A stretch of DNA of 64,000 nucleotides from an uncultured Acidobacteriota bacterium (GCA_963773605.1 CAVZBT010000012.1:780865-844864); one strand, 5' to 3'; numbered from the stretch's first letter, positions 23,705 through 40,344 are shown. A program made the numbers and translations. The notes: a model not told the origin generated them from the sequence alone.

Positions 23705-24225
23705 CCCCGACACCGCTTTTGCGGTCGGCGCCTAGGCGCCGACCTTGCGCACCCCCTGCCGATCCAGCCAAACCCAGACAGCGGTGCCCAGGCACCGCAC
23801 TCCATACTTTGGAGTGCGGCGGCTCGACGGCTCGACGCCGCTTTTGCGGTCGGCGCCTAGGCGCCGACCTTGCGCACCCCCTGCCGATCCAGCCAAACCC
23901 AGACAGCGGTGCCCAGGCACCGCACTCCATACTTTGGAGTGCGGCGGCTCGACGGCTCGACGCCGCTTTTGCGGTCGGCGCCTAGGCGCCGACCTTGCGC
24001 ACCCCCCTGCCGATCCAGCCAAACCCAGACAGCGGTGCCCAGGCACCGCACTCCATACTTTGGAGTGCGGCGGCTCGACGCCGCTGTGGGGTCGGCGCCT
24101 AGGCGCCGACCTTGCGCACCCCCCTGCCGATCCAGCCAAACCCAGACAGCGGTGCTCAGGCACCGCACTCCATACTTTGGAGTGCGGCGGCTCGACGCCG
24201 CTTTTGCGACCGCGCCGACACATTC
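23705..24225. repeat. tandem array (roughly 4.3 copies, about 125-bp unit) of the palindromic intergenic repeat, between the S9 peptidase and Maf-like genes
   Basis: Long variant of the unit with an extra about 18 bp (ccttgcgcaccccctgccgatccagcc) relative to the 9130-9418 array. Copies are nearly identical. They differ by ccccc versus cccccc runs and a gctcgac duplication. Confidence 0.85.
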
Positions 24226-24286: not shown

Positions 24287-26158
24287 TCAGCCTCGCTTGC
24301 CGGCCTGTGTCGGCTCAGCGAGGGCGCGCCGGATTTCCTGCAGGCTGGGGGAGATGCGGCCCAGGGCCTCGCCTACCGAGGCGAAGTAAGCGCCGTAAAC
24401 GGACTGGATGCTCGCGGCCGGAGGCTCGGGCGTCTGCGTCAAACGCGTGCGGCCGCGCAGAAACGAGACGTTGCCCATCTGATTGAAGGCGTCCAGCAGT
24501 GACGCCAGCTGCGGGGCCGTAGAGTAGATCGACTGCTTGATCTTTTCGAAGGCCCCGAGCAACGCGACGGGGGAACCGGTCGGCGTCTGCCGCGCGAGCG
24601 CCAGCCCCTCGTTCAGGGCCTGTGCCAGGCGCGTCGATTCCGCGTCGAGGAGATCGACCGTGTCGCGTTTCACCGGGCCTGCCCGCCTCGCAGCCGCTTC
24701 ATACAACGTCCGCACCCGGCCGACCAGGGCCGGGTCGCGCGAGCAATGCCTGTGCAGCGCCTCGCGCAGGCTCAAAATCTCCACACCCTCCCGCAGGATG
24801 CCCCCTTCGGTCGCATTGATGAAGCGGGTCCCGGGGTGCGTCCCGATCTCTTTGACCATCCAATTCCAGTACGCGGCCAGCTTGTCCGTGGTTTCGACCG
24901 GATGGCCGAAGAGGTCCTCCATGACGACGATCTTGTGCCCCTCTCTCAGTCGCTCCCACCGGCTTTTCCACTCCTGCGGGTTGGATACTCCGGCGAACCA
25001 TTCCGCCTCGGTGTGCAGGCCCGTGCAATAGGTCCTGCCCTCGCTGTGCGCAAGATCCTGGCCTGCGAAAATGACCGGGTCGCACCCGAGGTGCAAAGCA
25101 AAATCCAGGGCCATCGTCGCCACCGACCCCCATGCTTTAAGGCAGCCTTTATCGGCAAGGATGGCCGAAAGCGCCCGCAACGAAGAATCCCGAAACGTGC
25201 AGGTCACCGTCCTGCCCGGAAACTCAGCGAAGACCGCGGGATAGGCCGTGGCTTCGGCGACCAGCAGCGCGCGACGGGTCACTGCGCCTTTGATGTGGAG
25301 AAAGTTCCGGTGGGCCGGGTCCGCGGTGAGAACGAAGTGCGGCTCGATGCCCGCCGCCAGCAGGGGTTTCAAAGCCGTGTCGGTCGCGAGGATGAGGACC
25401 TGCCCCTCCAGGCCGCGTATTTCGTGGATGTTCTTGTCCAGCGACGGACCGGCCGAGACGATCACCGCCGGCTCCCTGGTGAACGCCCCGGCGAACCCCG
25501 AAACGCCTGGGCAGGCAAGCGCCGGCCGGAGGTTCTCCGTGAAATTCCGCAGGAACTCGAGCGACCGGGCGACCAGCGTGTTGATATCGGTCAGGATCTG
25601 AAACGTCCCGCTCCGGATGGTTTCGGCAGCCGCCTTGAACAACCCCGGCGCCTGAGCGATCGAAGGGGCGTGCATGATGAACGTGCACTTCTCCGCCTTC
25701 ACAGGATCAAAGAACTGTCGCCATTGTTCTCCGAGGTCGGGGCCGGACGGAGGCCACGCCAAGTGCAGTTGCGGCAACGAGAGGACGCCCGCCATATCCC
25801 GGGCTTCGAATGCAGCCCTGAGGATCTGGAGATTGGATTCCACCACGAAATAACCGACACTCCGGCCGCAGTTTCTTTCGAGCAGCGCGTCGAGCACATA
25901 CCCGAGTCCGAACCCGAGCAACACATAGCAGTCGCCGGCGGAATATTCCTGTTCCGCGAGCAACGCCCGGGCCTCCTTCACCGGGTCATACCGGCTGTGC
26001 AGCAGGATCGTCGAAGATGGGCCCGCCCAACGGGCGGTTGGCGCTCCGCTGGCCGACGGAAGGACTTCGATCGGAGCCGGACTCGTGCACGACAACAGCC
26101 GGGCGAGCGCGGGCTGGCGCCGCGACAGCAGATCCAGGTTCGCGTTCAAATAGTCCAA
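24287..26158 (-). CDS. Maf-like (motility-associated-factor) DUF115 family glycosyltransferase (6-hydroxymethylpterin diphosphokinase MptE-like fold)
   Basis: Central region REPAVIVSAGPSLDKNIHEIRGLEGQVLILATDTALKPLLAAGIEPHFVLTADP is the hallmark of PF01973 (Maf/DUF115). The 623-aa size and TPR-like flanks are typical of flagellin/pilin nonulosonic-acid transferases. Confidence 0.7.
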   Translation of the reverse strand: MDYLNANLDLLSRRQPALARLLSCTSPAPIEVLPSASGAPTARWAGPSSTILLHSRYDPVKEARALLAEQEYSAGDCYVLLGFGLGYVLDALLERNCGRSVGYFVVESNLQILRAAFEARDMAGVLSLPQLHLAWPPSGPDLGEQWRQFFDPVKAEKCTFIMHAPSIAQAPGLFKAAAETIRSGTFQILTDINTLVARSLEFLRNFTENLRPALACPGVSGFAGAFTREPAVIVSAGPSLDKNIHEIRGLEGQVLILATDTALKPLLAAGIEPHFVLTADPAHRNFLHIKGAVTRRALLVAEATAYPAVFAEFPGRTVTCTFRDSSLRALSAILADKGCLKAWGSVATMALDFALHLGCDPVIFAGQDLAHSEGRTYCTGLHTEAEWFAGVSNPQEWKSRWERLREGHKIVVMEDLFGHPVETTDKLAAYWNWMVKEIGTHPGTRFINATEGGILREGVEILSLREALHRHCSRDPALVGRVRTLYEAAARRAGPVKRDTVDLLDAESTRLAQALNEGLALARQTPTGSPVALLGAFEKIKQSIYSTAPQLASLLDAFNQMGNVSFLRGRTRLTQTPEPPAASIQSVYGAYFASVGEALGRISPSLQEIRRALAEPTQAGKRG

Positions 26159-26353
26159 GGCAGCCCCCGAAAAAAGAACGAACGTACTGCGCGCGACACA
26201 TCTTACAACCAGTGAGTGAATTCCCGACGGATTCCGTGACCGGCCCCTGCAGCTCGGGTGAGCAAACCTTAAAGCCTGCAGTCGCTTCCGACGATGAGCT
26301 GGTTGTGGCTGGCCCGGTCAGCCGGTGATGTACCGGGTTGAACCATTCACTGG

Positions 26354-27091
26354 ATGAAACCGATGCGAATCCGGGCCCCACGAAGCCTCTACAGTCCCGC
26401 GCCGAGACTCAATCAGCTGCGTATCCTGGAGCAGATTGCCGCCGACCACGGCATCACGCAATCCGAACTGGCCCAGCGGTGCTCCCTTTCTGTGGCGATG
26501 GTTAACAACTACATGAAGGAACTGTGCGCCCGCGGCCTGCTGGAATACCGCCGTCGGACGGCGAAAACCATTTCCTACCATGTGACGCCGGGCGGCCGGC
26601 AAAGCGCCGAGGCAACCCAGAACGAGCTGCTGCGCGAGAGCATAGCATCGTTCGCGGACACGAAGGACTGGGTGCGGAAAATCATCATGGGCCAGGCTCG
26701 CCGCAAACTTTATCGGGCGGTCTTGTACGGGAGCGGGGTCCTGGCCGAGATTGCTTTCCACGCGCTGGAATCGGCCCGGGTGAGTATCGTCGGTGTGTGC
26801 AGCGGCGACCCGGCGGAAATCGGGAAGGAGTGGTGCGGTCGTGAAATGTCGAGTCCCGCGCAAATCCGCTACCTGGCTCCGGACGCAGTGGTGATCGCGC
26901 TGGAAGAGGGCGCCGACCCCGTCTGGCGGGCGCTGACTTACCTGGCCCGCTACGACATCGACCTGATACGGACAGACCGCGTCCCCGCCTGCCTCCAGGT
27001 CGACGACCCCGAACTTGCCGGGTCCAGCGCGACACTCGCGGGACGCGCAGCGCATCCATCGGACACCGGAACGCTTGCAGGTGACAGATGA
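26354..27091 (+). CDS. winged-helix (MarR/IclR-like) transcriptional regulator fused to a C-terminal Rossmann-like module
   Basis: N-terminal wHTH (LNQLRILEQIAADHGITQSELAQRCSLSVAMVNNYMKELCARGLLEY). C-terminal about 90 aa (RKLYRAVLYGSGVLAEIAFHALESARVSIVGVCSGD...YDIDLIR) has a GxGxxA dinucleotide-binding-like motif. Transcribed divergently from the Maf-like gene. Its stop overlaps the GT4 start (ATGA). Confidence 0.65.
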   Translation: MKPMRIRAPRSLYSPAPRLNQLRILEQIAADHGITQSELAQRCSLSVAMVNNYMKELCARGLLEYRRRTAKTISYHVTPGGRQSAEATQNELLRESIASFADTKDWVRKIIMGQARRKLYRAVLYGSGVLAEIAFHALESARVSIVGVCSGDPAEIGKEWCGREMSSPAQIRYLAPDAVVIALEEGADPVWRALTYLARYDIDLIRTDRVPACLQVDDPELAGSSATLAGRAAHPSDTGTLAGDR

Positions 27092-28473
27092 CGGACTTAG
27101 AGAAAAAGGTGCTCTATATCGCCCACGCGCATCCGGCCTTCTCGCGCGGGGGCGGTGAGCTCGCCGCGTATTACCTCTACCAGGCCATGAAACTGCATGG
27201 GCACTACCGGCCATTCCTGCTGGCGAGGTTCGCCGACCCGTCATGCCAGGTCCAGCATCCGGGCTCGCGCCTGCTAGGCTGGGAGAAAGACGCCGCGACG
27301 CAACTGCTGGTGAGCAACAGCTCCAACTACGATTACTTCTACCATACCAAGCTGGACGCTAAGCTCGCCGAGGCGGACATGTATGCCGACGTGCGCGAGT
27401 TCCTGCTGGCGCTCAAACCCGACGTCGTGCATTTCCAGCACTTCATGCACATGGGCGTGGATCTGATATCGTACGTCAAGAAGCTGCTGCCGGAAGCACG
27501 GGTCCTGCTGACCCTGCACGAGTATGGCGCCATCTGTGCGCACGACGGTTCCATGCTGAAAACAGACCGCAGACAGCTGTGCCGTCGCGCGTCCACCCTG
27601 GACTGCTGCCGGTGCTTCCCACGGCGAAAACCCCGCGAGTTTTTTCTGCGCGAGCGCCTGATCAAGTCCAACTTCTCGGCCGTCGACCTGTTTCATGCCC
27701 CGAGCGAGTTCCTCAAGGAGCGTTACGTCGAATGGGGTGTCGCCCCCGAGCGCATCGTGGTCATGGACCATGGGCGTCCCGCCTGGGCCGCGACAAAACG
27801 CTCCGCGGGTCCTGCGGCGGGCCAGCCTTTCAGGGTGGCGTTTTTCGGCCAGATGGTCTTCCACAAGGGCTGGGACGTATTCCTGCAGGCCGCCGGCGAG
27901 TACGCGCGGTTACGGTCACAGACCGCCCCCGGCGGGCACGATTTGCCGGAACTCCATTTCAGCCTTCACGGGAACCGCCACCTCCCGGAGGAACTGTGCG
28001 GCCGGCTCGACGCTCTCCTGGAGGCCACACGCAGCGTGGTGCACGACCACGGCCCGTACGAGATGGATGGCATGCAGGATCTGCTCTCACGTGTGGACTG
28101 CGTGGTCGTCCCGTCCATCTGGTGGGAAAACTCGCCGCTGGTGATCCAGGAAGCCTTCATGGCGGGGCTGCCGGTCATTTGTTCCAACATAGGGGGAATG
28201 GCGGAGAAGGTGCAGGACCGGGTTAACGGGCTGCATTTCGCGGTGGGCGACCATTTCGACCTCCTCGACCGGATACTGGAACTGGCGGGGTCAGCGGAGC
28301 TCTATCGCCGCCTTGTGCAAGGCATCCCCGAAATCCTGCCCGACCGGGAGATGGCCCAACGGTTCAATTCCATCTATGACGGCTTGCTGCAGGGTGCCCA
28401 GCCGGCGCAGCCGCGGCACGGAGCGCAGGGGAGAAGGCCGGATCCCACCCGCTCCCTGGCCGCCGTCGAATAG
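27088..28473 (+). CDS. glycosyltransferase family 4 (GT-B fold, group 1), copy A
   Basis: C-terminal GT4 signature VVPSIWWENSPLVIQEAFMAGLPVICSNIGGMAEKVQDRVNGLHF (EX7E-type). Contains a Cys cluster LCRRASTLDCCRCFP. Confidence 0.85.
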   Translation: MTDLEKKVLYIAHAHPAFSRGGGELAAYYLYQAMKLHGHYRPFLLARFADPSCQVQHPGSRLLGWEKDAATQLLVSNSSNYDYFYHTKLDAKLAEADMYADVREFLLALKPDVVHFQHFMHMGVDLISYVKKLLPEARVLLTLHEYGAICAHDGSMLKTDRRQLCRRASTLDCCRCFPRRKPREFFLRERLIKSNFSAVDLFHAPSEFLKERYVEWGVAPERIVVMDHGRPAWAATKRSAGPAAGQPFRVAFFGQMVFHKGWDVFLQAAGEYARLRSQTAPGGHDLPELHFSLHGNRHLPEELCGRLDALLEATRSVVHDHGPYEMDGMQDLLSRVDCVVVPSIWWENSPLVIQEAFMAGLPVICSNIGGMAEKVQDRVNGLHFAVGDHFDLLDRILELAGSAELYRRLVQGIPEILPDREMAQRFNSIYDGLLQGAQPAQPRHGAQGRRPDPTRSLAAVE

Positions 28474-28479
28474 CCGATT

Positions 28480-29781
28480 ATGAAGAGAAAAGTGCTCTAC
28501 GTCGCGCACGGACATCCGGCATTCTCTCCGGGGGGAGGGGAACTGGCCGCCGCGCACCTGCATCAGGCGATGAAGGCCACTGCCGGCTATGAGCCCCACC
28601 TGTTGGCCAGGGTCGACGATGCCGACGGCCGTTTCCGCCACTCCGGCGCGCCGCTGATCGGGTATCAGCGGGACGACTCCACCCACCTCATTGCGAGCAA
28701 CAGCGGCCACTACGACTACTTCTTCCACACCAAGATCGATTCCCGCCTTGCGGAGGCGGACATGTTCGCCTCATTTCGCGAGTTCCTCCTTGCGCTCCAA
28801 CCGGACGTGGTGCACTTCCAACACTTCATCCACCTCGGTGCGGACCTGATGTGCTATGCCCGGTCCCTGCTCCCGCACGCGAAAATCGTCCTCACGCTGC
28901 ACGAATACGAGGCCATCTGCGCCAACCAGGGTCTGATGCTCACGACAGACGGACGACGGTGCCGCCGCGCATCGACACTGGAGTGCTGCCGTTGCTTCCC
29001 GCACCGCAAGCCGCGAGAGTTCTTCCTGCGGGAGCGCCTGATCAAATCCAACTTCGCGGTCGTCGACCGGTTCATCGCACCCAGCCATTTCCTGAAGACC
29101 CGCTACGTGGAGTGGGGGATCGCTCCTGGGCGCATCCTGGTGATGGACAACGGGCGACCGGTCTGGCGCGGGCGGGAGCGCCCGCCCAGGCGGCTGGGGC
29201 AGCTGTTTCGACCCGCCTTCTTCGGGCAAGTCGTCGCGCACAAAGGCTGCGACGTCTTCCTCCGGGCCGCCGAGGAATACCTCCAATCTCAGTCGCGCCC
29301 CGGCCGGGAGCTGCCCCAGGTCCGCTTTGGCCTCTACGGGGCACGACACTGGATGTCGGGATCGCCGGCAGAAGAGCTCGACCGCCTGATCGAGCGGACG
29401 CGCGGCGTGGTGCATCATCACGGCGCCTACGACATGGACTGCATGCCGGACCTGCTGAGCGGTGTCGATTGCGTCGTGCTTCCCTCGCTCTGGTGGGAAA
29501 ACTCCCCGCTGGTGATCCAGGAAGCGTTCATGGCGGGACTGCCGGTCGTCTGTTCAAACATCGGCGGCATGGCGGAGAAGGTGACCGACGGCGTCAACGG
29601 CCTGCACTTCGCCGTCGGCGATCATTTCGATCTGCTGCGGAGGATCCTCGAACTCGCGGCCTCTCCGGAGCTCTACGGCCGGCTCGTAACGGGCATCCCC
29701 GGAATTCTCTCCGCGGGGGAGATGGCCGGCCGGATCACGACACTCTACGACGAACTGCTCGAAGGCAACCCAGCGTCATGA
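28480..29781 (+). CDS. glycosyltransferase family 4, copy B (tandem paralog of 27088-28473, about 65% aa identity by eye)
   Basis: Same architecture and motifs (VLPSLWWENSPLVIQEAFMAGLPVVCSNIGGMAEKVTDGVNGLHF, RCRRASTLECCRCFP). Its stop overlaps the start of the next gene (ATGA at 29778-29781). Confidence 0.85.
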   Translation: MKRKVLYVAHGHPAFSPGGGELAAAHLHQAMKATAGYEPHLLARVDDADGRFRHSGAPLIGYQRDDSTHLIASNSGHYDYFFHTKIDSRLAEADMFASFREFLLALQPDVVHFQHFIHLGADLMCYARSLLPHAKIVLTLHEYEAICANQGLMLTTDGRRCRRASTLECCRCFPHRKPREFFLRERLIKSNFAVVDRFIAPSHFLKTRYVEWGIAPGRILVMDNGRPVWRGRERPPRRLGQLFRPAFFGQVVAHKGCDVFLRAAEEYLQSQSRPGRELPQVRFGLYGARHWMSGSPAEELDRLIERTRGVVHHHGAYDMDCMPDLLSGVDCVVLPSLWWENSPLVIQEAFMAGLPVVCSNIGGMAEKVTDGVNGLHFAVGDHFDLLRRILELAASPELYGRLVTGIPGILSAGEMAGRITTLYDELLEGNPAS

Positions 29782-32700
29782 CCATGAATAGCACGATCGG
29801 GCACCAGTACATCACCGACGCAAGAGACTACCGGCATCTGGCGGACCGAAAGCGCTACAAGGCCCTGTACGACGACGTAGGCACGCTCGAGGCCAACCGC
29901 CAGGTCCGCCGGCGCGAAGAGCGGATGAAATATTTCAACCCGAGGCCGGCGGCCCGCATCCTGGAACTGGGCGCGCACAACGGGCCGAACCTGATCCACT
30001 ATGCCCGGAAGGGGCATGTGGTTCACGGCGTGGAATTATCCGACACCCTCGCCGAAACGTTCGTGTCCGCCCTCGCCGGTGAACCTCCGGACGTGCAGGC
30101 CCGGATCCGCATGTACCGGGGATGGATAGCGGACTTCAAACCCGAGGAGTCTTACGACCACGTGCTCTGTGCCGAGATACTCGAGCACGTCACCGACCCG
30201 GTGGAAGTCCTGAAGGTCGCGCGCGCGGCCCTCACCGCTTCGGGCACGCTCTACCTCTCGGGCCCCTCCCGCCACTGGGGGAACAACACCTACGTCCGGG
30301 GCGTGCCGGCAGCAGACCTGGAACGCTGGCTGAAGTCCGCCCGCCTCACGTACTCGGAGATGTGGGAGGAAGAAGGACGGACATTCTGCATCGCCCATGC
30401 AACCGATTTGCGAGTGATTGGCCTGACGAGGGTCCGGAACGAGGCGGCCATCATCCGGGAAACATTGGATCACATGGCGCGGTTCTGCAACGGCGGCATT
30501 GTCGTGTACGACGACGTCTCGTCGGACTCGACCCCCGAGATCTGCCGCGCGCACCCTGCAGTCCTCGACGTCGTGCGGGGAGAACTCTGGGACGGCAATA
30601 GGGGTCGGGCAGAATACGCCGGCCGGGCGGTCCTCCTTGCCCGTGGAAAGCGAGAAGCCGGGCCGCGCGATTGGTTCGTTTACATGGACGCGGATGAAAG
30701 AATCGAGTTCGACTGGAGCAGTCTCCTGCTCTGCCCTGACGACGTCGTGGGCGTGCGGATGAAGCTATTCGACTACTACATCACGGAAGAGGACGTGCAG
30801 AGATCCTACGCGGAACGCAGGTGGCTAGGACCCGAGTACCGGCCCATTCTGATGGCATTCCGCAACCTGCCGTCGCTTTCCTACAGCCGTCCGGACCAGC
30901 GCCAAGCGGACCTCGGGCCCGACGGCACGATCCTGGATGCCGGCCACGTCAAGCACTACGGCAAGGCGGTTTCCGTCGCGCAGTGGGAGGACGCCTGCCG
31001 GTACTACAGCGGTTACTTTGCCGGCTACGCGGCGAAATGGAACGCGCGCAAGGGAAAGGCCGTCCACACGCACTCGGACTTCGGCAACCCCTTGATCAGG
31101 TGGGAGGAGAAGGAAGCCAAGGGCATCCCGCTGACGCCCGAGATCGAGGCGGCCGCGGCGCAGAAGACGCTCGCCGAGCCGCGGCCCGGTCTGAGGGTGC
31201 TCCTGACGAATCATCAACTGCTGGACTTCACAGGCTCCGAGCTCTTCACCTATACCGTCGCCGATTTCCTGAGGAGAGAGGGGCACGAAGTCGTCGTCTA
31301 CTCCCGGTACGTCGACAAGATCGGCCGCCGGCTCCGCGGCATCGGCGTGCGGGTCGTGCAGGACCTGGACGAAATCGCCGGCGAGCGGTTCGACATTGCC
31401 CACGTGCATCACAATCTCAACGCGATGGAAATCCGGCACCGCTTCCCACAATTGCCGATCATCATGGTCTCCCATGGCGTTCTTCCCTTCCTGGAGCAAC
31501 CGCCGGCCGTCGACCTGAGGATCGCCCGGTACCTCGCGGTGAGTGAGGAGGTCCGAGAGAATCTCCTGTCAAGGGGCGTGCCGGCCGGAACTGTTTCGGT
31601 TTTCAGAAACGTCGTGGACTCACAGCGCTTCAGCCCCACTTGCCCGATCCGGGAGAAGCCGGAGCGCGCGTTAGTCCTGAGTTCACGGCTCGACTCCGGG
31701 CGGGAAAGGACCGTTCGGGAAGCGTTCTCGGCCCTGGGCATCCTGGGACGCTTTGTGGGGGGGCGCTTCGGAGAGGCTGACCCGTCGCTGTTGCCCTCGT
31801 ACATCAACGAGGCCGATATCGTGTTTTCCCTCGGAAGAGGCGCAGTCGAGGCCATGCTGTGCGGCCGCATCCCGGTGATATACGACTATCTCGGCGCAGA
31901 CGGGCTCGTGACCCCGGGAAACCTCGGGGACCTGATGGCGCGCAATTTCTCGGGCCGGACGCACCGCACGGAATACACCCCGGCACAACTGGCCGATGAG
32001 ATCCGGCAATACCGAAGAGAGTATGGATGGCAGCTCCGCACCCTTGCGTTGGAGCACTTCGACGCCGGGACGAGGATGCCGGGGTTGATCCGGATCTACC
32101 ACGAGGCGCTTTCCGTCGCCGTCCCCGAAATGTCTACGCGAGACAAAGAACAACTGTCGGCCTTCGTCGAAACCGTCCGTGAGACCCGGAATTACTCCTA
32201 CAGCCAGGTGATCCGGAAGCACGGCCGGGATCTCCAGGCCCTATCCCGCACGACCATACCGGCCCCCGGGCTGCCCACGGGCGCAGAGGCGGCGCGATCG
32301 GCAGCGGAGCTCAGGGATCTGCTCTGGCTCGACGGCACGGAATCCGGCGCACACCACGAGCTCGGACTGTTGCACTATGCGCGGGGCAGCAAACACGACG
32401 CGCTGGAGTGTTTCCGAAAGGCGGTGGAGCTTGACCGTGAAGATGCCGCGGCCAGCAAGGACCTGGCCCTGCTTTATCTGGAAATGTGGCCGGCGCTCGC
32501 GCGGGAAAGAGATGAGCGCACGGAGCAGCTGCAACGGCAGGAATGCCGGATAAAGGAACTCGAGGCCCACAATTCGAACCTCCGGCAAATCGTGGAGTGC
32601 ACCATGCCGCGGATGCGCACCGAGCTCTACGAGGAGAAGATGTTGAGGCTGGCGAGCCGTATCCGGCGGCGCGGCATTCGCGACGTGCTCGTCTACGGCG

Positions 32701-32957
32701 CAGGCGAAGCGGGCCGGGCCTTTGCCAGGGCAGCCCAAACCGTCGGGCTGCGCCCCTGCGGTTTTGTGGATAAGAAGCCATCCCTGTGGGGATCGCAGGT
32801 GGAGGGCGTGGAGGTCCTGTCCCTCGACGCCGCCATGGGCAGAGGCATTCACGTGTACGCGGTCGGATCGTTCGCCTTTGCTTCCGAGATCCAGCACGAG
32901 ATCCGCCTCGCCTACGCCGCGGCCGGGTGCAGACCGCGGATTTTTGCGATCCATTGA
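29778..32957 (+). CDS. 1059-aa multidomain enzyme: class I SAM-dependent methyltransferase, GT2-like domain, GT4-like domain, TPR/coiled-coil, and C-terminal Rossmann-like module
   Basis: MT: ILELGAHNGPNLIHYARKGHVVHGVELSD...VLCAEILEHVTDP. GT2-like: VIGLTRVRNEAAIIRETLDHMARFCNGGIVVYDDVSSDST...YMDADE. GT4-like: LRVLLTNHQLLDFTGSELFTY...GRIPVIYDYLGADGLV. TPR: HELGLLHYARGSKHDALECFRKAVELD, then a coiled coil. C-terminus: VLVYGAGEAGRAFARAAQTVGLRPCGFVDKKPSLWGSQVEGVEVLSLD. The ORF-track start 28851 is an artifact of an open frame overlapping the GT4-B gene. Confidence 0.8.
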   Translation: MTMNSTIGHQYITDARDYRHLADRKRYKALYDDVGTLEANRQVRRREERMKYFNPRPAARILELGAHNGPNLIHYARKGHVVHGVELSDTLAETFVSALAGEPPDVQARIRMYRGWIADFKPEESYDHVLCAEILEHVTDPVEVLKVARAALTASGTLYLSGPSRHWGNNTYVRGVPAADLERWLKSARLTYSEMWEEEGRTFCIAHATDLRVIGLTRVRNEAAIIRETLDHMARFCNGGIVVYDDVSSDSTPEICRAHPAVLDVVRGELWDGNRGRAEYAGRAVLLARGKREAGPRDWFVYMDADERIEFDWSSLLLCPDDVVGVRMKLFDYYITEEDVQRSYAERRWLGPEYRPILMAFRNLPSLSYSRPDQRQADLGPDGTILDAGHVKHYGKAVSVAQWEDACRYYSGYFAGYAAKWNARKGKAVHTHSDFGNPLIRWEEKEAKGIPLTPEIEAAAAQKTLAEPRPGLRVLLTNHQLLDFTGSELFTYTVADFLRREGHEVVVYSRYVDKIGRRLRGIGVRVVQDLDEIAGERFDIAHVHHNLNAMEIRHRFPQLPIIMVSHGVLPFLEQPPAVDLRIARYLAVSEEVRENLLSRGVPAGTVSVFRNVVDSQRFSPTCPIREKPERALVLSSRLDSGRERTVREAFSALGILGRFVGGRFGEADPSLLPSYINEADIVFSLGRGAVEAMLCGRIPVIYDYLGADGLVTPGNLGDLMARNFSGRTHRTEYTPAQLADEIRQYRREYGWQLRTLALEHFDAGTRMPGLIRIYHEALSVAVPEMSTRDKEQLSAFVETVRETRNYSYSQVIRKHGRDLQALSRTTIPAPGLPTGAEAARSAAELRDLLWLDGTESGAHHELGLLHYARGSKHDALECFRKAVELDREDAAASKDLALLYLEMWPALARERDERTEQLQRQECRIKELEAHNSNLRQIVECTMPRMRTELYEEKMLRLASRIRRRGIRDVLVYGAGEAGRAFARAAQTVGLRPCGFVDKKPSLWGSQVEGVEVLSLDAAMGRGIHVYAVGSFAFASEIQHEIRLAYAAAGCRPRIFAIH

Positions 32958-32970
32958 CGGAGCCAGGAGC

Positions 32971-34032
32971 ATGACCGAATCGGACAAGCTCAGCGTCATC
33001 GTGCTGATGCACAACAACGTTCCCATGACACGGAACTGCCTGGAGACCCTGTCGAAGGCGGTTACGGGATTGGACCACGAAGTCCTTCTGCTGGACAACG
33101 CCTCGACCGATGACACGGGACCGCTGCACGAGTGCGGTGGCTGGTTCCAACGGTTCAAGATCTGCAGGAACGAGGACAACAGCCCGTTCGCCTCGGCGAA
33201 CAACCGGGCCGTGCGCGAGACCTCGGGGCAATGGCTTCTTTTCCTCAACAACGACGTGACCGTGGGGCGCGACAGCGTCGAGCGGCTGCTGGCGCCGCTC
33301 CGCGAAGACCAGGGAATCGGCATCACGGGGGCCAAGCTGCTTTTCCCCGGCGAGGCGGCAGTCCAGCACGCGGGCATCGGACAGATGTTGTGGGGTTACC
33401 CAAGCAACTACGGGGTAGGCGCCTCGCCCGTGGATGCCAGGGTGAACCAGCGTTGCGAGCGGTTCGCGCTGACGGGCGCGATGCTCTGCCTGAGACGCAG
33501 TGTCTTCGAAACGGTCGGCGGTTTCGACGAGCGCTACGTCTGGGGCGTCGAGGACGTCGACCTCTGTCTGAAGATCAGGGCCGCCGGCCTCAAACCGGTC
33601 TATCAACCGGAGGCCGTCAGTGTGCACGTCGAATCCGCTACCCTGAAGGTCACCCGGACGTGGGACCTGGACCACAACTACAGGCTTTACCGGAACCTCT
33701 GGGACAGGGAGCTGCGCGCGCGTGAACAGGGCTATGTGCGCCGGCTCGAACGCGAGGGGATTCGCAGGGTCGCTGTGTTCGGAACCGGAGTCGCCGCCCG
33801 GGGACTGGCGCGGGTGCTCGACGACAGTGGCATCCGGATCGTGACCTTCACGTCATCGCAAACGGCAGGCACGGGCGAAATCTTCCTCGATAGGCCGGTG
33901 CTCCCGCTTGTCTCCCTCAAGAGGGTCGCCTACGACAGGCTGATCGTGGCGACGCAGTACTTTTTCGAGGTGGAGCCGATCCTCCGTGCGTTGGACCCGG
34001 TGGGGGAGCCGATTTTCCCGGTCTTGATGTGA
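32971..34032 (+). CDS. glycosyltransferase family 2 fused to C-terminal Rossmann-like module
   Basis: GT-A motifs (LSVIVLMHNN...LLLDNASTDDT...ANNRAV...LFLNNDV (DxD)...GVEDVDLCLK). C-terminal VAVFGTGVAARGLARVLDDSGIRIVTFTSS...YDRLIVA is homologous to the C-termini of 26354-27091 and 29778-32957. Confidence 0.8.
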   Translation: MTESDKLSVIVLMHNNVPMTRNCLETLSKAVTGLDHEVLLLDNASTDDTGPLHECGGWFQRFKICRNEDNSPFASANNRAVRETSGQWLLFLNNDVTVGRDSVERLLAPLREDQGIGITGAKLLFPGEAAVQHAGIGQMLWGYPSNYGVGASPVDARVNQRCERFALTGAMLCLRRSVFETVGGFDERYVWGVEDVDLCLKIRAAGLKPVYQPEAVSVHVESATLKVTRTWDLDHNYRLYRNLWDRELRAREQGYVRRLEREGIRRVAVFGTGVAARGLARVLDDSGIRIVTFTSSQTAGTGEIFLDRPVLPLVSLKRVAYDRLIVATQYFFEVEPILRALDPVGEPIFPVLM

Positions 34033-34051: not shown

Positions 34052-35200
34052 ATGAGCGCTGAACCGTTGACGATTTTTCACATGATTGCCCAGCTGCGGC
34101 TCGGCGCGGGCCGGGTGGTGGCCGACGCCGCGATCGAGCAGGCGCGCGGAAGGGGGCACCGGGTGACGGTCTGTGTGAGCGCCGACGCGGAGGCGCACTG
34201 GCGCACGGATCCGAGACTCGCCGCCGAACTGGAGCGCCACAACATCGAGGTCCACACCCTCGGGGACTTCTTCCATCGCCGGCCCGATCAGCTTCGCCGC
34301 GCCGCGGAGCAACTGCGGGGCGCGCTGTCGAGGGACGGCGGCGCGGTCGTAGTGCATGCGCACACGGCCATGGCCGCAGCCGTCGGGCACTGGGCGCAGC
34401 CCGACGCCCTGGTTGCGACCTGTCACGGATGGGGCGCCGGCAGGCCTCAGGACATGGACCTGCAGGACGCCCTGGCTTACCAGCTGTGCGACGCGGTCCT
34501 CACCTACTCCCGCCACTGGGCAGCCCGGCTCAGTCAGGACCTGGGAGTGCGCTCTCCGAGGCTGATCCCGATGGGCCTCGACCTCGAACGGTTCCCGGAA
34601 TCGCGCATGACGCGCCGCGCTCAATCGACGCCATTCCGGGTGGTCACGGTCTGCGAGTTGACGGCGCGCAAGGGCGTCGACCTGCTTCTCGATGCCATGC
34701 CGGCAGTCTGGAGCCGCCTCCCGGACGCGGAGCTGCACATCATGGGTACCGGGGACCTGGCCGCCGAGCTGCGGTTCAGGGCGGCGGACCTTGACCCCGG
34801 TGCGAAGCGCATCGTTTTCTACGGCGCCGTCGCGAACCCGTATGCGCGGTTGGCGGAATTCGACCTCTTCGCCCTCGCCAGCAGGTCCGATAACCTGCCG
34901 GTCGTTCTGCTGGAAGCCATGCTGGCCGGGCTGCCGATTGTGGCCGCGGGGGTGGGCGGGGTTCCCGATCTCCTCTGCGCCGCAGGGTGCGGCGCCGTCG
35001 TTCCCTCGGGCTCCCCCCAGGCGCTCGCGGACGAAATCCTCGCCATGGCCCGGCTCGACCAGTCTAAGCGGGTCGAACAGGGATACAGCGGCGAGCAGTA
35101 TGCCCGCCGCGAATTCGACGCGCGCAGGGCAACCGCGTGCCTGGAGCAAATCTATCTCGAGGCGCTCGACAAGAAGCGCACCGAGGCTTCGCGCGGATAA
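34052..35200 (+). CDS. glycosyltransferase family 4
   Basis: GT-B fold with C-terminal FALASRSDNLPVVLLEAMLAGLPIVAAGVGGVPDLL motif. No membrane segments. Confidence 0.85.
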   Translation: MSAEPLTIFHMIAQLRLGAGRVVADAAIEQARGRGHRVTVCVSADAEAHWRTDPRLAAELERHNIEVHTLGDFFHRRPDQLRRAAEQLRGALSRDGGAVVVHAHTAMAAAVGHWAQPDALVATCHGWGAGRPQDMDLQDALAYQLCDAVLTYSRHWAARLSQDLGVRSPRLIPMGLDLERFPESRMTRRAQSTPFRVVTVCELTARKGVDLLLDAMPAVWSRLPDAELHIMGTGDLAAELRFRAADLDPGAKRIVFYGAVANPYARLAEFDLFALASRSDNLPVVLLEAMLAGLPIVAAGVGGVPDLLCAAGCGAVVPSGSPQALADEILAMARLDQSKRVEQGYSGEQYARREFDARRATACLEQIYLEALDKKRTEASRG

Positions 35201-37717: not shown

Positions 37718-39430
37718 TTATGCGATCAGTTCGGAGATGACCGCGCCCCACTTCCGCTCGTGCCGCCGGGCGTTGATGAAATGCAGGGAGCGGCGCACGT
37801 CGGAGGCCCACGACGCCCCCTCGAGGTGATAGAGCTCAACCCGGTTGTCGCAGAGTGTCCTCCTGCCCTGCTCCCTGAACCGCAGGCAGATGTCCGAGTC
37901 CTCGTAGTCGCCGCGGACAAAGCCGCTGTCGAGCATCCCGAGCGCCCGGTACTCCGCAGTCCTGAACATCATGCAGGCGCCGGTGACGGCGTGCACTTCG
38001 GTCAGCCCGTGGCATGGGACCAAGGCCGGGCTCATTCCCTTGTACGGGTGGTAGTTCACCAACAGATCCTGGAGGGCGGGATCGCGGCGCCAGGTCAGCC
38101 CGGCGTGCTGTAGCGACTCATCAGGGTACAGGAGCCGCGCTCCGACGATCCCGGCGGAGGGGTCGGCTTCCAGGTCCGAAATCAGGGTCTGCAGCCACTC
38201 CCTGGACTTCGGGAAGACGTCGGAGTTGAGCAGGAGGAGGTAGGTCGCGCGGGCAGCGGTTGCGCCGATGTTGCACGCCATGCTGAAACCGCACGTGCGA
38301 TTGGTGACCAGAAGCCGGACGGGCACGCCATACAAATCGTACAACCGGTGCAGCCGGACCTTGAACCGCTCCGGGTCGTCTTCCTCATCGTCGACATGGT
38401 GCTGGACCAGTATCAGTTCCTGCTGTTTGAGGAACGGATCGGCGGAGAAGTCCGAAAGCTGGTGCCGGATCAAATCGTAGGCCCGGAAGAAAGGCACCAC
38501 GATGCTGACCTTGGGATGCCGCGGCGCGTCGCCGAACTGGTACGCGGCAATCACCTTCACGCCGCTGTTCGCCTCGGCGTTCAAGGCTGCAATCACGTCG
38601 AGGAAGCGCTCTTCGGCGCCCATGCTCCGCTCGACGGATCGGCGGGCCGGGCCGCAGCAACGATTGAAGGCGACGACGAATTCGTCCAGCAGCGCTGCGG
38701 TGTCGGATGAGGGGTCGAGGTCGAGCGTACGCTCGCACCCGTCGGGATAACGGATGCGCAGCGCCGTTGAGTGGAATCGGGGAGGAACGAAGATCGCAAC
38801 CCCGGTCTTGTCGTCGGGCGCGCCGGCATCCGGGCCCGGATACCGAAACACGGCGGCTTCAACCGGCGCGGAGCCGGCATCACCGAGCAACGTCAGTCTA
38901 TCCGCGGGAACGCCGCCATCGGGGAGCCGGCCGACAATCGCCAGCGCGCCGTCATCGCTGCGGAAGCAGCTAATTGCCTGTTGATGGCAAACCGAGCCGG
39001 CCACAGCCATCGCCCCGCGCGCCGGCCAGGGAGAGAGGCTGCGCAGGCTCAGGTCGGGAGTCATGACATAGGCCGGAACCTCGCCGCACCCCCGGGCAAA
39101 ACCGACGAGCTGCTCGAATCCCTTGCCGTCCTTATTCCCCAGCGGCACCACGACGGCCGCGCACTTGTCCCAGTCCAGTTTCCCCTCGAGTTGCGAGCGC
39201 ATATCCGCTTCCAGGAACCGCTGCCCGCGATAATGTATGGTCTCGGCCCACGAGGGGTAGCGCTGGAGGTTGCCGGCGTTTGCTTCGAAAACCACCACAC
39301 GGTGGCGGGGGAACTGTGTGCGGATTTTGCCCAGGCATTCCGTGAAGGCATCCCACGGGACGCACCTCGGAACCAGGACGGCGGACGAATCGGCGGCAGG
39401 CATCAACACCTCCGGGGAAAAGGGCTTCAA
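37718..39430 (-). CDS. glycosyltransferase family 2 with about 300-aa N-terminal domain of unknown function
   Basis: C-terminal GT-A: VSIVVPFF...ACNIGATAARATYLLLLNSDVFP...DYEDSDICLR. The N-terminal half has no recognisable motifs. Its start overlaps the rfbD stop. Confidence 0.8.
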   Translation of the reverse strand: MKPFSPEVLMPAADSSAVLVPRCVPWDAFTECLGKIRTQFPRHRVVVFEANAGNLQRYPSWAETIHYRGQRFLEADMRSQLEGKLDWDKCAAVVVPLGNKDGKGFEQLVGFARGCGEVPAYVMTPDLSLRSLSPWPARGAMAVAGSVCHQQAISCFRSDDGALAIVGRLPDGGVPADRLTLLGDAGSAPVEAAVFRYPGPDAGAPDDKTGVAIFVPPRFHSTALRIRYPDGCERTLDLDPSSDTAALLDEFVVAFNRCCGPARRSVERSMGAEERFLDVIAALNAEANSGVKVIAAYQFGDAPRHPKVSIVVPFFRAYDLIRHQLSDFSADPFLKQQELILVQHHVDDEEDDPERFKVRLHRLYDLYGVPVRLLVTNRTCGFSMACNIGATAARATYLLLLNSDVFPKSREWLQTLISDLEADPSAGIVGARLLYPDESLQHAGLTWRRDPALQDLLVNYHPYKGMSPALVPCHGLTEVHAVTGACMMFRTAEYRALGMLDSGFVRGDYEDSDICLRFREQGRRTLCDNRVELYHLEGASWASDVRRSLHFINARRHERKWGAVISELIA

Positions 39431-40344
39431 GAGTGAGAACGGCCGGCCAGAGAAGCCTCGCGACGGGCGTCCGGGCTGCGCCCGGCCTCCAGGTACTCCT
39501 GCAGCGCGTGCCGCCAGGGCGGCATGCGGTCAATGCCCAGCATGGCGAGGTTGCGGTTTTCCAGAACCGAAAACGAGGGACGGGCCGCGACGGCTCCCGA
39601 TTGGGATGTCGACTGACGGCCGAGGTCGGGCGCCAGACCCGCCAACTCGAAAATCGCTGCCGCGAACTCGAACCACGAGCATGCCCCCTGGCAGGTCGCG
39701 TGGTAGGTGCCGTAATGGCCGAGCCGACACAGAGAGGCGATCTGGCGCGCCAGCGACGCTGTCGGCGTCGGCGTCAGGGTTTGATCGTCCACCACCCGGA
39801 TCGGCTTGCCCGAACGGGCCAGCCGCAGCATCAGTTCGACGAAGTTGCTCCCTTTGCCGGAGGGCCCGGCCGCCCCATAGAGCCCGCTGGTGCGCACGAT
39901 GAAATGCCTGCGCCACAAGGAGCGGACCGCCATCTCGCCGGCGGCCTTGCTGATACCGTACATGTTGATCGGATCGACCGGGTCGGACTCGTAGTACGGG
40001 CCCCCTTTCCGTCCAGAGAACACGTAATCCGTGCTGAGGTGGACAAGGACCGCATCGAGTTGCCGGCACACCACGGCCAGGTTTCTCGGGCCGAGCACGT
40101 TGACACGGAAAGCGCACCCGGGAGCGGCTTCGATGTCGTCCACGCGGTGACAGGCCGAGGTATTGACCACCACCCCGGGCGCGAGCGGAAACAGCGCCGC
40201 CCGGACCGACTCGATCTCGGAGACCTCGATATCGGCGTGAGTGAGCGCGCGCGGCCCGGCACCGGCCGGGTCAGCCGGCCATAAACGCATCAGGTCGGCC
40301 CCCAGCTGCCCATTCGCGCCGACGATCGCCACCGGCCTGCCCAT
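39427..40344 (-). CDS. rfbD: dTDP-4-dehydrorhamnose reductase
   Basis: MGRPVAIVGANGQLG (GxxGxxG), HLSTDYVFSG, and YGISKAAGE (YxxxK), the RmlD signature set. Confidence 0.85.
   Translation of the reverse strand: MGRPVAIVGANGQLGADLMRLWPADPAGAGPRALTHADIEVSEIESVRAALFPLAPGVVVNTSACHRVDDIEAAPGCAFRVNVLGPRNLAVVCRQLDAVLVHLSTDYVFSGRKGGPYYESDPVDPINMYGISKAAGEMAVRSLWRRHFIVRTSGLYGAAGPSGKGSNFVELMLRLARSGKPIRVVDDQTLTPTPTASLARQIASLCRLGHYGTYHATCQGACSWFEFAAAIFELAGLAPDLGRQSTSQSGAVAARPSFSVLENRNLAMLGIDRMPPWRHALQEYLEAGRSPDARREASLAGRSHS

Follow-up and report, generated by a model that had tools for sequence, protein, structure and literature searches.

Here we show that three different proteins encoded in a glycan biosynthesis island of an Acidobacteriota bacterium, namely a winged helix-turn-helix (wHTH) regulator, a fusion enzyme and a GT2 glycosyltransferase, carry homologous copies of one Rossmann-like module. 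All positions given refer to the window, i.e. the whole 64-kb stretch of DNA that was analysed. The explanation that accounts best for the observations, and that we regard as probable rather than secure, is that the module is an accessory domain on the two enzymes, and that on the regulator it forms part of a Rex-like transcription factor that senses a nucleotide-containing molecule.

The three tails are homologous

The original prediction, made by eye, was that the C-termini of three island proteins share a module of about 90 aa. The quoted tail sequences were all located in their respective genes, and the prediction is borne out by profile comparison: homology extends over residues 119-207 of the regulator (26354-27091) and over the C-terminal ~110 and ~117 residues of the fusion enzyme and the GT2 protein, respectively, with profile-profile E-values between the tails of 6e-11 to 1e-15 over 72-94 columns. 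BLASTP aligned the regulator tail with the GT2 tail (E 4e-6, 25% identity over 76 aa) and the fusion tail with the GT2 tail (E 2e-6, 41% identity over 37 aa, the first 37 residues only), and gave no match between the regulator and fusion tails. Using hhalign profiles built from four clean GT2-tail orthologues, 40 regulator tails and 153 fusion-type tails, the GT2-tail profile matched that of the regulator tails with 97.1% probability (E 6e-11, 72 columns) and that of the fusion-type tails with 98.6% probability (E 1e-15, 90 columns), and the fusion-type and regulator tails matched each other with 97-98% probability (E 5e-13 and 2e-10, 94-95 columns). Controls with reversed sequences gave E-values of 0.27-0.48 and probabilities of at most 0.2%. 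The HMM-HMM comparison, in which E > 1 was to stand for unrelated tails, therefore finds the three related. When all six-frame ORFs of the window were scanned with the fusion-type-tail HMM, only three matches were obtained (fusion enzyme 4.5e-43, GT2 7.4e-10, regulator 1.3e-5), and none to the other Rossmann proteins of the window, such as RmlD. The GT2 tail alone, compared with 150 proteins related to the fusion tail, gave 148 domain-level matches at E up to 10, the best at ~1e-9.

The three window tails share a pairwise identity of 14-27%, whereas the fusion tail is 40-50% identical to relatives in other phyla, for example in Heliomicrobium. Because the relatives that each tail has elsewhere are far closer, a recent duplication inside the island is excluded. 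Judged from their sequences, the three tails represent old subfamilies of one module that have diverged from each other, i.e. ancient paralogues that were each recruited independently. Some details of the original prediction had to be corrected. In the regulator the module does not form the last ~90 residues; it is followed, up to residue 245, by an extension of ~38 residues that is non-conserved and has low AF2 confidence. Likewise, the D-x-L/V-I/V-A motif that had been read in all three tails is lacking in the fusion tail.

Features of the regulator, the two enzymes and the 5' region

Table 1. Positions in the window of the genes, protein domains and conserved upstream blocks described in the text.
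Feature	Position	Strand	Basis or remark
Conserved 5' region of regulator gene	26209..26359	+	alignment of 10 contexts
Box A	26209-26224	+	conserved block, 10 contexts
Promoter-like block	26262-26297	+	conserved block, 10 contexts
Small hairpin	26307-26323	+	conserved block, 10 contexts
Box C, near-palindrome TTCA-N5-TGAA directly 5' of ATG	26344-26359	+	conserved block
Regulator gene	26354..27091	+	245 aa counted from 26354
Winged helix-turn-helix, HTH_24 / MarR_2 type, residues 17-77	26402..26584	+	Pfam HTH_24; AF2 pLDDT ~97
Long single helix linking wHTH and module, residues 79-114	26588..26695	+	AF2 secondary structure
Regulator Rossmann-like module, residues 119-207	26708..26974	+	strands b1-b5
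Fusion enzyme, 1059 aa	29778..32957	+	domain composition
Fusion-enzyme module, residues 950-1059	32625..32954	+	lead-in helix + Rossmann core
GT2 glycosyltransferase, 353 aa, C-terminal module	32971..34032	+	domain composition
GT2 module, residues 237-353	33679..34029	+	lead-in helix + Rossmann core

The conserved start of the regulator is probably the ATG at 26363 (MRIRA; 242 aa) and not 26354, and its stop codon overlaps the ATG of a downstream GT4 gene (ATGA, 27088-27091). In the AF2 model (pLDDT 88, ~97 inside the domains), a long helix connects the wHTH with a Rossmann-like domain of five strands; the tail modelled alone also has a pLDDT of 88. The wHTH scores 41.6 bits with HTH_24 (cutoff 21.9) and 31.3 with MarR_2 (cutoff 27), the Pfam match being confined to residues 20-67, and the full MarR dimerisation fold is absent. 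The linker helix, which shows weak similarity to the Sso10a family and HTH_45, is in this model likely to be a coiled-coil dimerisation element. The module itself contains a GxGxxA loop and the motifs CSGDP (family consensus CDDDP), EWCGRE and APD. In Foldseek searches with the regulator tail alone, Rex, 3NKL and 2G6T head the list, and together with the AF2 fold this agrees with the original assignment to a dinucleotide- or CoA-binding Rossmann type.

The fusion enzyme combines a SAM methyltransferase, a GT2-like domain, a GT4, TPR and a coiled coil with the module, whose core reads VLVYGAGEAGR...FVDKKP...LWG...GSFAF. The corresponding core in the GT2 protein is VAVFGTGVAARG...FTSSQ...RPVLPL...LIVATQYFFEVEP.

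The conserved blocks upstream of the regulator gene (Table 1) are candidate operator and promoter elements; in one context (L004) box C lies outside the aligned stretch, yet it is present in the L004 sequence. The motif AKTGRRTGAA occurs in the window at box A itself and nowhere else. Searches of the 5' region revealed no simple inverted repeat, no Rfam family, no sigma-70 consensus promoter and no terminator. Since the box A-box C pairing proposed by RNAalifold is weak (-2.2 kcal/mol, one covarying column), we do not claim an RNA element.

Relatives, distribution and genomic context

Local Pfam and NCBIfam scans left all three window tails below threshold. PF22674 ('C2185-like_N') is precomputed on many regulator homologues, several at E<=1e-5, and also on GT2+tail orthologues, where matches at E<=1e-5 stand beside weak or faint ones. 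PF22674 is not precomputed for the window regulator (P0001), and the PF22674 model in the local Pfam copy gave no match even where a precomputed one exists. Against solved structures, the fusion-tail profile matched 3NKL (9e-7), Rex (1e-4) and VioB (7e-3) and, more weakly, residues 303-392 of TylC3 (0.03) and WbaP (0.07), and the regulator-tail profile matched a DapB-N-like domain (1e-4) and Rex (0.018). The relatives that had been named from the sequence were thus recovered: PglD_N and CoA_binding weakly, NeuD/VioB, WbaP and the PglF-type 3NKL. Literature searches for C2185, PF22674, CAC2185, HI1244 and 2G6T returned nothing relevant, and the wHTH+module regulators appear to be an uncharacterised family.

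An exhaustive search of representative proteins yielded 303 relatives of the fusion tail, on scaffolds that include GT2, GT4, methyltransferase, HAD and radical-SAM enzymes; word-indexed searches for homologues of either the GT2 tail or the fusion tail alone found no relatives. The module is therefore an accessory domain widely distributed among glycan enzymes, and it is not peculiar to the window island. Some proteins carry two copies of it in tandem.

It had also been proposed to search for wHTH proteins with the same tail, and these do exist: the genome scan found the combination in Acidobacteriota MAGs only, in at least 293 clusters from 35 species. The regulator gene is usually the first gene of glycan operons, and nine of the ten contexts inspected adjoin glycosyltransferase clusters, the remaining one being without any glycan genes. 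A second module-bearing ORF within 10 kb of the regulator was lacking in 5/10 and 26/35 sampled contexts. Module-bearing enzymes do occur within this distance in about one quarter to one half of the contexts sampled, and some clusters are rich in them (four in L040, three in L028). This co-occurrence may merely reflect the abundance of the domain in glycan clusters.

Conserved residues and a possible mode of action

Five residues are invariant in all 121 regulators compared (G126, C149, G162, R163 and P176), and several others nearly so: H136 (120 of 121), Q170 (119), D177 (118), A131 (116), G128 (115) and D151 (101). All of these conserved residues lie in the loops that follow b1 and b2, surround b3 and precede b4. 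Two cysteines are invariant in the regulator family. The position after b2 that is acidic in the fusion tail (D in FVDKKP) has no acidic residue in the GT2 tail (FTSSQ), and in the regulators it is D in 64/121 and S in 36/121, including the window protein. Because the tails diverged anciently and their pocket signatures differ, the three copies need not share one ligand. The original idea that the module couples regulation to a single pathway metabolite is weakened by this divergence, with its different conserved pocket residues, and by the fact that half or more of the contexts have no other module-bearing gene near the regulator.

The likeliest role of the module would be to sense a nucleotide or NDP-sugar and to mediate dimerisation. 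It would be a Rossmann-like nucleotide-binding domain of ~90 residues with the predicted order b1-aA-b2-b3-aB-b4-aC-b5, preceded by a lead-in helix, and its probable kin are PF22674, the PF08484 domain, 'CoA_binding_3' of PglF/WbaP and the N-domain of PglD/NeuD/VioB, with the Rex sensor more distant. In the fusion enzyme and the GT2 protein it is an add-on to catalytic domains and may bind a nucleotide, be it to capture substrate, for allosteric control and/or to dimerise; the WbaP domain offers the precedent. In the regulator, the long helix joins it to the wHTH, giving a one-component Rex-like transcription factor encoded by the first gene of a glycosyltransferase operon. Such a regulator would dimerise and bind the conserved sites of its own promoter/5' region, the strictly conserved loop face of its Rossmann domain would take up a small molecule that contains a nucleotide, and DNA binding would change with this occupancy. 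The most plausible ligand would be an NDP-sugar or its NDP/NMP by-product, NAD(H) being less likely.

Other explanations deserve consideration. It is conceivable, but in our judgement rather unlikely, that the regulator is a genuine redox sensor of the Rex type, its binding of NADH/NAD+ coupling glycan synthesis with the redox state, while the enzyme tails are functionally unrelated. Rex repressors do top the Foldseek lists of the regulator, with the whole chain and with the tail only, they are matched by sequence from both the regulator and the fusion-tail profiles, and the b2 segment GVCDDDPxxIGrE of the regulators closely resembles GIFDSDPSKIGKE of Rex. Yet 2G6T, 3NKL and VioB, domains of nucleotide-sugar pathways, are equally good structural neighbours, the aspartate after b2 is variable, and what follows b5, the site of the swapped helix in Rex, is neither conserved nor confidently modelled in the regulator. 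The neighbourhood is one of glycan biosynthesis rather than of fermentation or respiration; the differences in Pfam matches and in the glycine-rich loop, which also argue against a redox sensor, are given with the comparison below.

The Rossmann domain of Rex forms the dimer interface. A quite improbable role for the module would be mainly that of an oligomerisation or docking tag without a ligand, whose tails pair homo- or heterotypically, assemble the enzymes and possibly sequester the regulator. The dimer interface formed by the related WbaP domain (PMC10942596), the tandem double copies and the several module enzymes that often accompany one regulator are compatible with such a tag, but conservation of the regulator tail is strongest in the Rossmann ligand loops (GxGxxA, the acidic stretch after b2, GR and PD) and not on the helix surface, and the regulator is often without module-bearing neighbours. 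That the tails resemble each other only through a generic beta-alpha-beta GxGxxG motif, or arose by recent duplication within the island, is extremely improbable. Their low identity, the empty BLASTP comparison of regulator and fusion tails and the short fusion-GT2 match could be read in this way; nevertheless, the profile alignments cover 72-95 columns of a module of ~100 residues with E-values of 1e-10 to 1e-15, reversed controls fail, the other Rossmann proteins of the window go unmatched by the module HMM, and the GT2 tail matches the relatives of the fusion tail broadly, each tail having far closer relatives elsewhere.

Acidobacteriota are a dominant and poorly cultured phylum of soils, and to our knowledge the regulation of their surface-glycan or exopolysaccharide clusters is essentially unknown. 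The regulator family is a testable candidate for this role, being Rex-like, heading glycosyltransferase operons and having a sensor akin to the accessory domains of the enzymes. If the ligand is a nucleotide-sugar or UMP/UDP, the allosteric logic of the WbaP domain would reach transcription, and there would be a hint to the function of a very common unannotated C-terminal domain found in ~300 representative proteins. If it is NAD(H) only, the regulator would be a divergent Rex. A more far-reaching possibility, which we consider doubtful, is a 'shared-sensor regulon', in which the regulator and several enzymes of its pathway in Acidobacteriota glycan clusters, each with a homologous copy of the domain, read the same pathway nucleotide (an NDP-sugar or the NDP/NMP by-product) or dock mutually, so that one signal tunes both transcription and activity.

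Comparison with known systems

Small Rossmann-like accessory domains of glycan enzymes are also represented by 'CoA_binding_3' (PF13727) of WbaP, PglF and WbpM, and the module is similar to the solved representative of that family, 3NKL, a fragment structure. The PF13727 HMM has no match in the window tails and is absent among the top families of 68 relatives, and the WbaP-type domain lies between a 4-TM bundle and the catalytic domain, whereas the module here is C-terminal and soluble. Experiments on WbaP (PMC10942596) showed that its domain mediates dimerisation and binds UMP, UDP and UDP-sugar, with UMP acting as an inhibitor of WbaP; such a part in dimerisation and uridine-nucleotide sensing is also what is proposed for the module. 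The likeness to the N-domain of PglD/NeuD/VioB (PF17836, TIGR03570) is weak in sequence and always below the curated cut-offs: PglD_N gave E 0.05 with a window tail (14.5 bits, cutoff 23.4) and 2e-4 with a homologue, and TIGR03570 gave 7e-4 (19.2 bits, cutoff 160.8). The module here differs in being five-stranded and in not being followed by a left-handed beta-helix (hexapeptide-repeat) acetyltransferase domain.

The second half of PF08484 (Methyltransf_14, the C-domain of sugar C-methyltransferases) is matched by some regulators and by 12/68 fusion-type proteins. The cutoff of 23.5 is passed by P0044 (25.1 bits), by P0076 (24.5 bits) and by ORFs in L028; the window tails have no significant match. 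The C-domain of TylC3 (4RV9) aligns with the fusion-tail profile, and in TcaB9 the PF08484 domain holds the dTDP-sugar; the modules described here lack the zinc ribbon and an adjacent C-methyltransferase core. In fold, the regulator module also agrees with the N-domain of CAC2185 (2G6T), from which PF22674 was apparently derived, with no HMMER-level sequence match from either the regulator-tail or the fusion-tail profile. In 2G6T, an uncharacterised protein of 305 aa, the domain is N-terminal, whereas the regulator and enzyme modules follow other domains.

The closest counterpart of the whole regulator is Rex (e.g. 1XCB, 2VT3, 3WG9 and 5ZZ5), likewise a one-component protein, with a winged helix at the N-terminus and a sensor of Rossmann type at the C-terminus. 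The 23 top whole-chain Foldseek matches are all Rex-family chains; the first 20 of them align over 208-235 columns with a TM of only 0.3-0.4, because the domain arrangement differs. GVCDDDPaeIGrE after b2 of the regulator family aligns with GIFDSDPSKIGKE of Rex. On the other hand, the regulator wHTH is of the HTH_24/MarR_2 type, without a PF06971 match at E<=0.1, and CoA_binding (PF02629) is not matched by the window regulator and only below threshold by homologues (E 0.016-0.12, 13.6-16.4 bits, cutoff 22.3). Furthermore, a 36-residue helix separates the two domains, a conserved equivalent of the swapped C-terminal helix is lacking, the loop reads GxGxxA instead of GxGxxG, and the genomic context is that of glycan gene clusters. 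The original prediction knew of no description of this architecture. Its layout is nonetheless that of Rex, and homologues already carry the labels HTH_24 and PF22674 in the precomputed Pfam annotation; the regulator is a Rex-like variant and not a new kind of system.

Results

Homology and fold of the tails

The original prediction, made by eye, that the C-termini of the regulator, the 1059-aa fusion enzyme and the GT2 glycosyltransferase are one module is, by the sequence comparisons, correct and statistically solid. In pairwise BLASTP the GT2 tail matched both the regulator tail (E 4e-6, 76 aa) and the fusion tail (E 2e-6, 37 aa), with no link between the regulator and fusion tails. Therefore, one profile was built per tail: for the regulator from an alignment (A1) of 40 trimmed tails taken from 293 full-length homologues, for the fusion from the 303 proteins obtained at E<=1e-3 when 1.84 billion representatives were searched exhaustively with HMMER, and for the GT2 from four clean orthologues at loci adjoining regulator homologues. 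Profile-profile comparison joined the GT2 and regulator tails (probability 97.1%, E 6e-11, 72 columns), the GT2 tail and the fusion-type tails, i.e. the relatives of the fusion tail (98.6%, E 1e-15, 90 columns), and the fusion-type and regulator tails (97-98%, E 5e-13 and 2e-10, 94-95 columns); reversed-sequence controls gave probabilities of 0.2% or less, with E 0.27-0.48. Furthermore, a search of all six-frame ORFs of the window with the fusion-tail HMM returned only three matches (E 4.5e-43, 7.4e-10 and 1.3e-5), namely the fusion, the GT2 and the regulator, and left the other Rossmann enzymes of the window unmatched. Thus, no pair of tails reached an E-value above 1 in the profile comparisons, and these and the window search did not divide the tails among three different families.

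In the profile alignments the three tails share 14-27% identity, versus 40-50% between the fusion tail and relatives elsewhere. These values rule out local duplication as their origin, and the three copies are thus old paralogues.

An AlphaFold2 model of the regulator, built with a 51-sequence alignment, was confident (mean pLDDT 88; about 97 within domains). The folds named alongside this model were succinyl-CoA synthetase alpha (10.4), KijD10 (10.1), Rex (10.0), FkbM (8.7) and VioB (8.6), and Foldseek with the tail alone gave Rex, 3NKL and 2G6T as its leading hits. The original prediction assigned the Rossmann-like fold rightly. The fusion-tail profile matched 3NKL (9e-7), Rex (1e-4), VioB (7e-3), the TylC3 C-domain (0.03) and WbaP (0.07), and the regulator-tail profile matched a DapB-N-like domain (1e-4) and Rex (0.018). 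The window's three tails obtained no significant score against local Pfam and NCBIfam; PF22674 (C2185-like_N) is precomputed on many regulator homologues and on orthologues of the tailed GT2, and some module relatives pass PF08484, the C-methyltransferase C-terminal domain. Based on these structural matches, profile matches and labels, the module falls into an established group of small accessory domains that bind nucleotides and occur in sugar-pathway proteins.

Fusion-tail relatives carry the module nearly always C-terminally, on proteins of many lengths. Partner domains in a sample of 68 of them include GT2 (13), GT4 (9), HAD hydrolases (7), radical SAM (2) and several methyltransferase families, and the family has members outside the Acidobacteriota, e.g. 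in Heliomicrobium modesticaldum. Two tandem copies occur in P0121, P0128, P0150, P0155, P0157, P0171 and P0242; in P0121, a multi-domain protein of 2300 aa, they lie at about 2007-2097 and 2153-2272. Since some enzymes near regulator homologues, e.g. an FkbM-type methyltransferase, carry it N-terminally (L020:10989-12437, minus strand; L028:16440-17645, plus strand), the module behaves as a position-independent mobile domain.

The regulator family and its gene cluster

The full-length regulator homologues (at least 293) are all about 226-250 aa long with the winged-helix-plus-tail layout, and the species-representative genomes encoding this family are Acidobacteriota MAGs (35/35). Sources name these proteins only MarR or winged-helix regulators. 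Whole-chain Foldseek placed Rex repressors at positions 1-23, the winged helix plus Rossmann domain is a Rex-like architecture, and the segment following b2 (family consensus GVCDDDPxxIGrE) is closely similar to GIFDSDPSKIGKE of Rex. However, the regulator does not match PF06971, the Rex N-terminal domain, CoA_binding is only sub-threshold in the family, an inserted helix of 36 residues separates the two domains, and a conserved C-terminal helix is missing from the family. By sequence, the family is thus not a member of Rex; it is a Rex-like variant. Because of this likeness, and because its domain labels already exist in databases, the suggestion that the architecture is undescribed was overstated. 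On one Acidobacteriota contig, two paralogous regulators of this type lie about 1.7 kb apart (L018:1147-1863 and L018:3535-4227).

Features of the regulator and its surroundings in the window
Feature	Position	Strand	Remark
MptE-like/PseD-like gene	24287-26158	-	flanking
Box A	26209-26224		upstream of regulator
Conserved block	26262-26297		upstream of regulator
Hairpin	26307-26323		upstream of regulator
Box C	26344-26359		near-palindrome TTCA-N5-TGAA (perfect in L002), 4 nt before conserved ATG
Regulator	26354-27091	+
Winged helix	residues 17-77		AlphaFold2
Single long helix	residues 79-114		AlphaFold2
Five-stranded parallel beta/alpha domain	residues 121-206		AlphaFold2
Disordered, non-conserved tail	after beta/alpha domain		AlphaFold2
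GT4 glycosyltransferase	27088-28473	+
Second GT4 glycosyltransferase	28480-29781	+
1059-aa fusion	29778-32957	+	SAM-methyltransferase, GT2-like, GT4, TPR, coiled coil, tail
GT2, 353 aa	32971-34032	+	with tail
Additional GT4	34052-35200	+
NHL-repeat-like ORF	ends 37670	+	identified by synteny with L001 and other loci
GT2	37718-39430	-	flanking
RmlD-type dTDP-4-dehydrorhamnose reductase-looking ORF	39427-40344	-	translation read by eye

The module genes sit in a plus-strand series of glycan-biosynthesis genes, and the regulator probably heads the operon, because its stop codon overlaps the ATG of the downstream gene. Translation of the regulator itself probably begins with the ATG at 26363 (MRIRA..., 242 aa, matching its public record P0001) rather than at 26354; in three orthologous loci (L006, L012 and L013) the DNA immediately before the conserved ATG contains a TAA stop. 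The gap separating the peptidase S9 gene from the MptE-like gene holds a tandem array (23708-24197) that resembles a REP-like intergenic repeat, in which a 125-bp unit with many internal palindromes occurs four times (94% matches).

Three DNA blocks 5' of the regulator gene (26209-26359) are kept in an alignment of 10 distinct family contexts, even though the proteins of these contexts are just 45-75% identical; box C lies outside the L004 stretch in this alignment and was seen in L004 in a separate comparison. The blocks are candidate operator and promoter elements. Boxes A and C share about 8 nt of complementarity, and RNA pairing in this region is only weakly supported.

Discussion

The original prediction envisaged a module shared by regulator and enzymes that couples regulation to a pathway metabolite. 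The pattern of a regulator with several module-sharing enzymes does recur, since at 9 of 35 genome loci between one and four other ORFs with the module lie no more than 10 kb away (GT2s, radical-SAM/SPASM enzymes, an FkbM methyltransferase and unknown proteins). However, it is not obligatory: a second copy is absent from five of the 10 inspected contexts and, within 10 kb, from 26 of the 35 loci. Nine of the 10 contexts have glycosyltransferase clusters next to the regulator, and one context lacks glycan genes. In three of the nine (L004, L006 and L011) a tailed GT2 gene directly follows the regulator; GT4 and fusion genes intervene in the window and L001. Because the module is common in glycan clusters generally, co-occurrence alone is no proof of coupling, which is nevertheless plausible. 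Several contexts (the window, L002, L004 and L011) have a large NHL-repeat/Vgb-lyase-like protein near the regulator, and in the window and L001 an MptE-like (PseD/Maf-type) protein is encoded divergently from the regulator; these neighbours hint at a possible role of the cluster in protein modification or in the synthesis of a specific surface glycan.

Among 121 regulator-family members, no change occurs at G126, C149, G162, R163 or P176, and each of G128, A131, H136, C161, Q170 and D177 is kept in 95% or more. This extreme conservation falls at the canonical Rossmann ligand loops, which favours a specific ligand or a functional surface over a passive spacer. On the other hand, the pocket signatures of the three subfamilies differ, both in the glycine loop (YGAGEAGR in the fusion, YGSGxLAE in the regulator, FGTGVAAR in the GT2) and after b2 (FVDKKP; CSGDP, with family consensus CDDDP; FTSSQ), which speaks against a single common ligand. 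C149 (121/121; 26798-26800), C161 (118/121; 26834-26836) and H136 (120/121; 26759-26761) of the regulator have no counterparts in the enzyme tails, and could form a candidate redox or metal site.

The regulator would dimerise via its long helix and/or Rossmann domain, bind the conserved boxes of its own 5' region, and respond to a nucleotide-containing ligand. Rex provides the precedent for a winged helix under the control of a Rossmann sensor. The WbaP domain mediates dimerisation of its enzyme and has UMP, UDP and UDP-sugar as ligands, and the enzyme is inhibited by UMP (PMC10942596); this domain is the nearest experimental precedent for the role proposed for the module.
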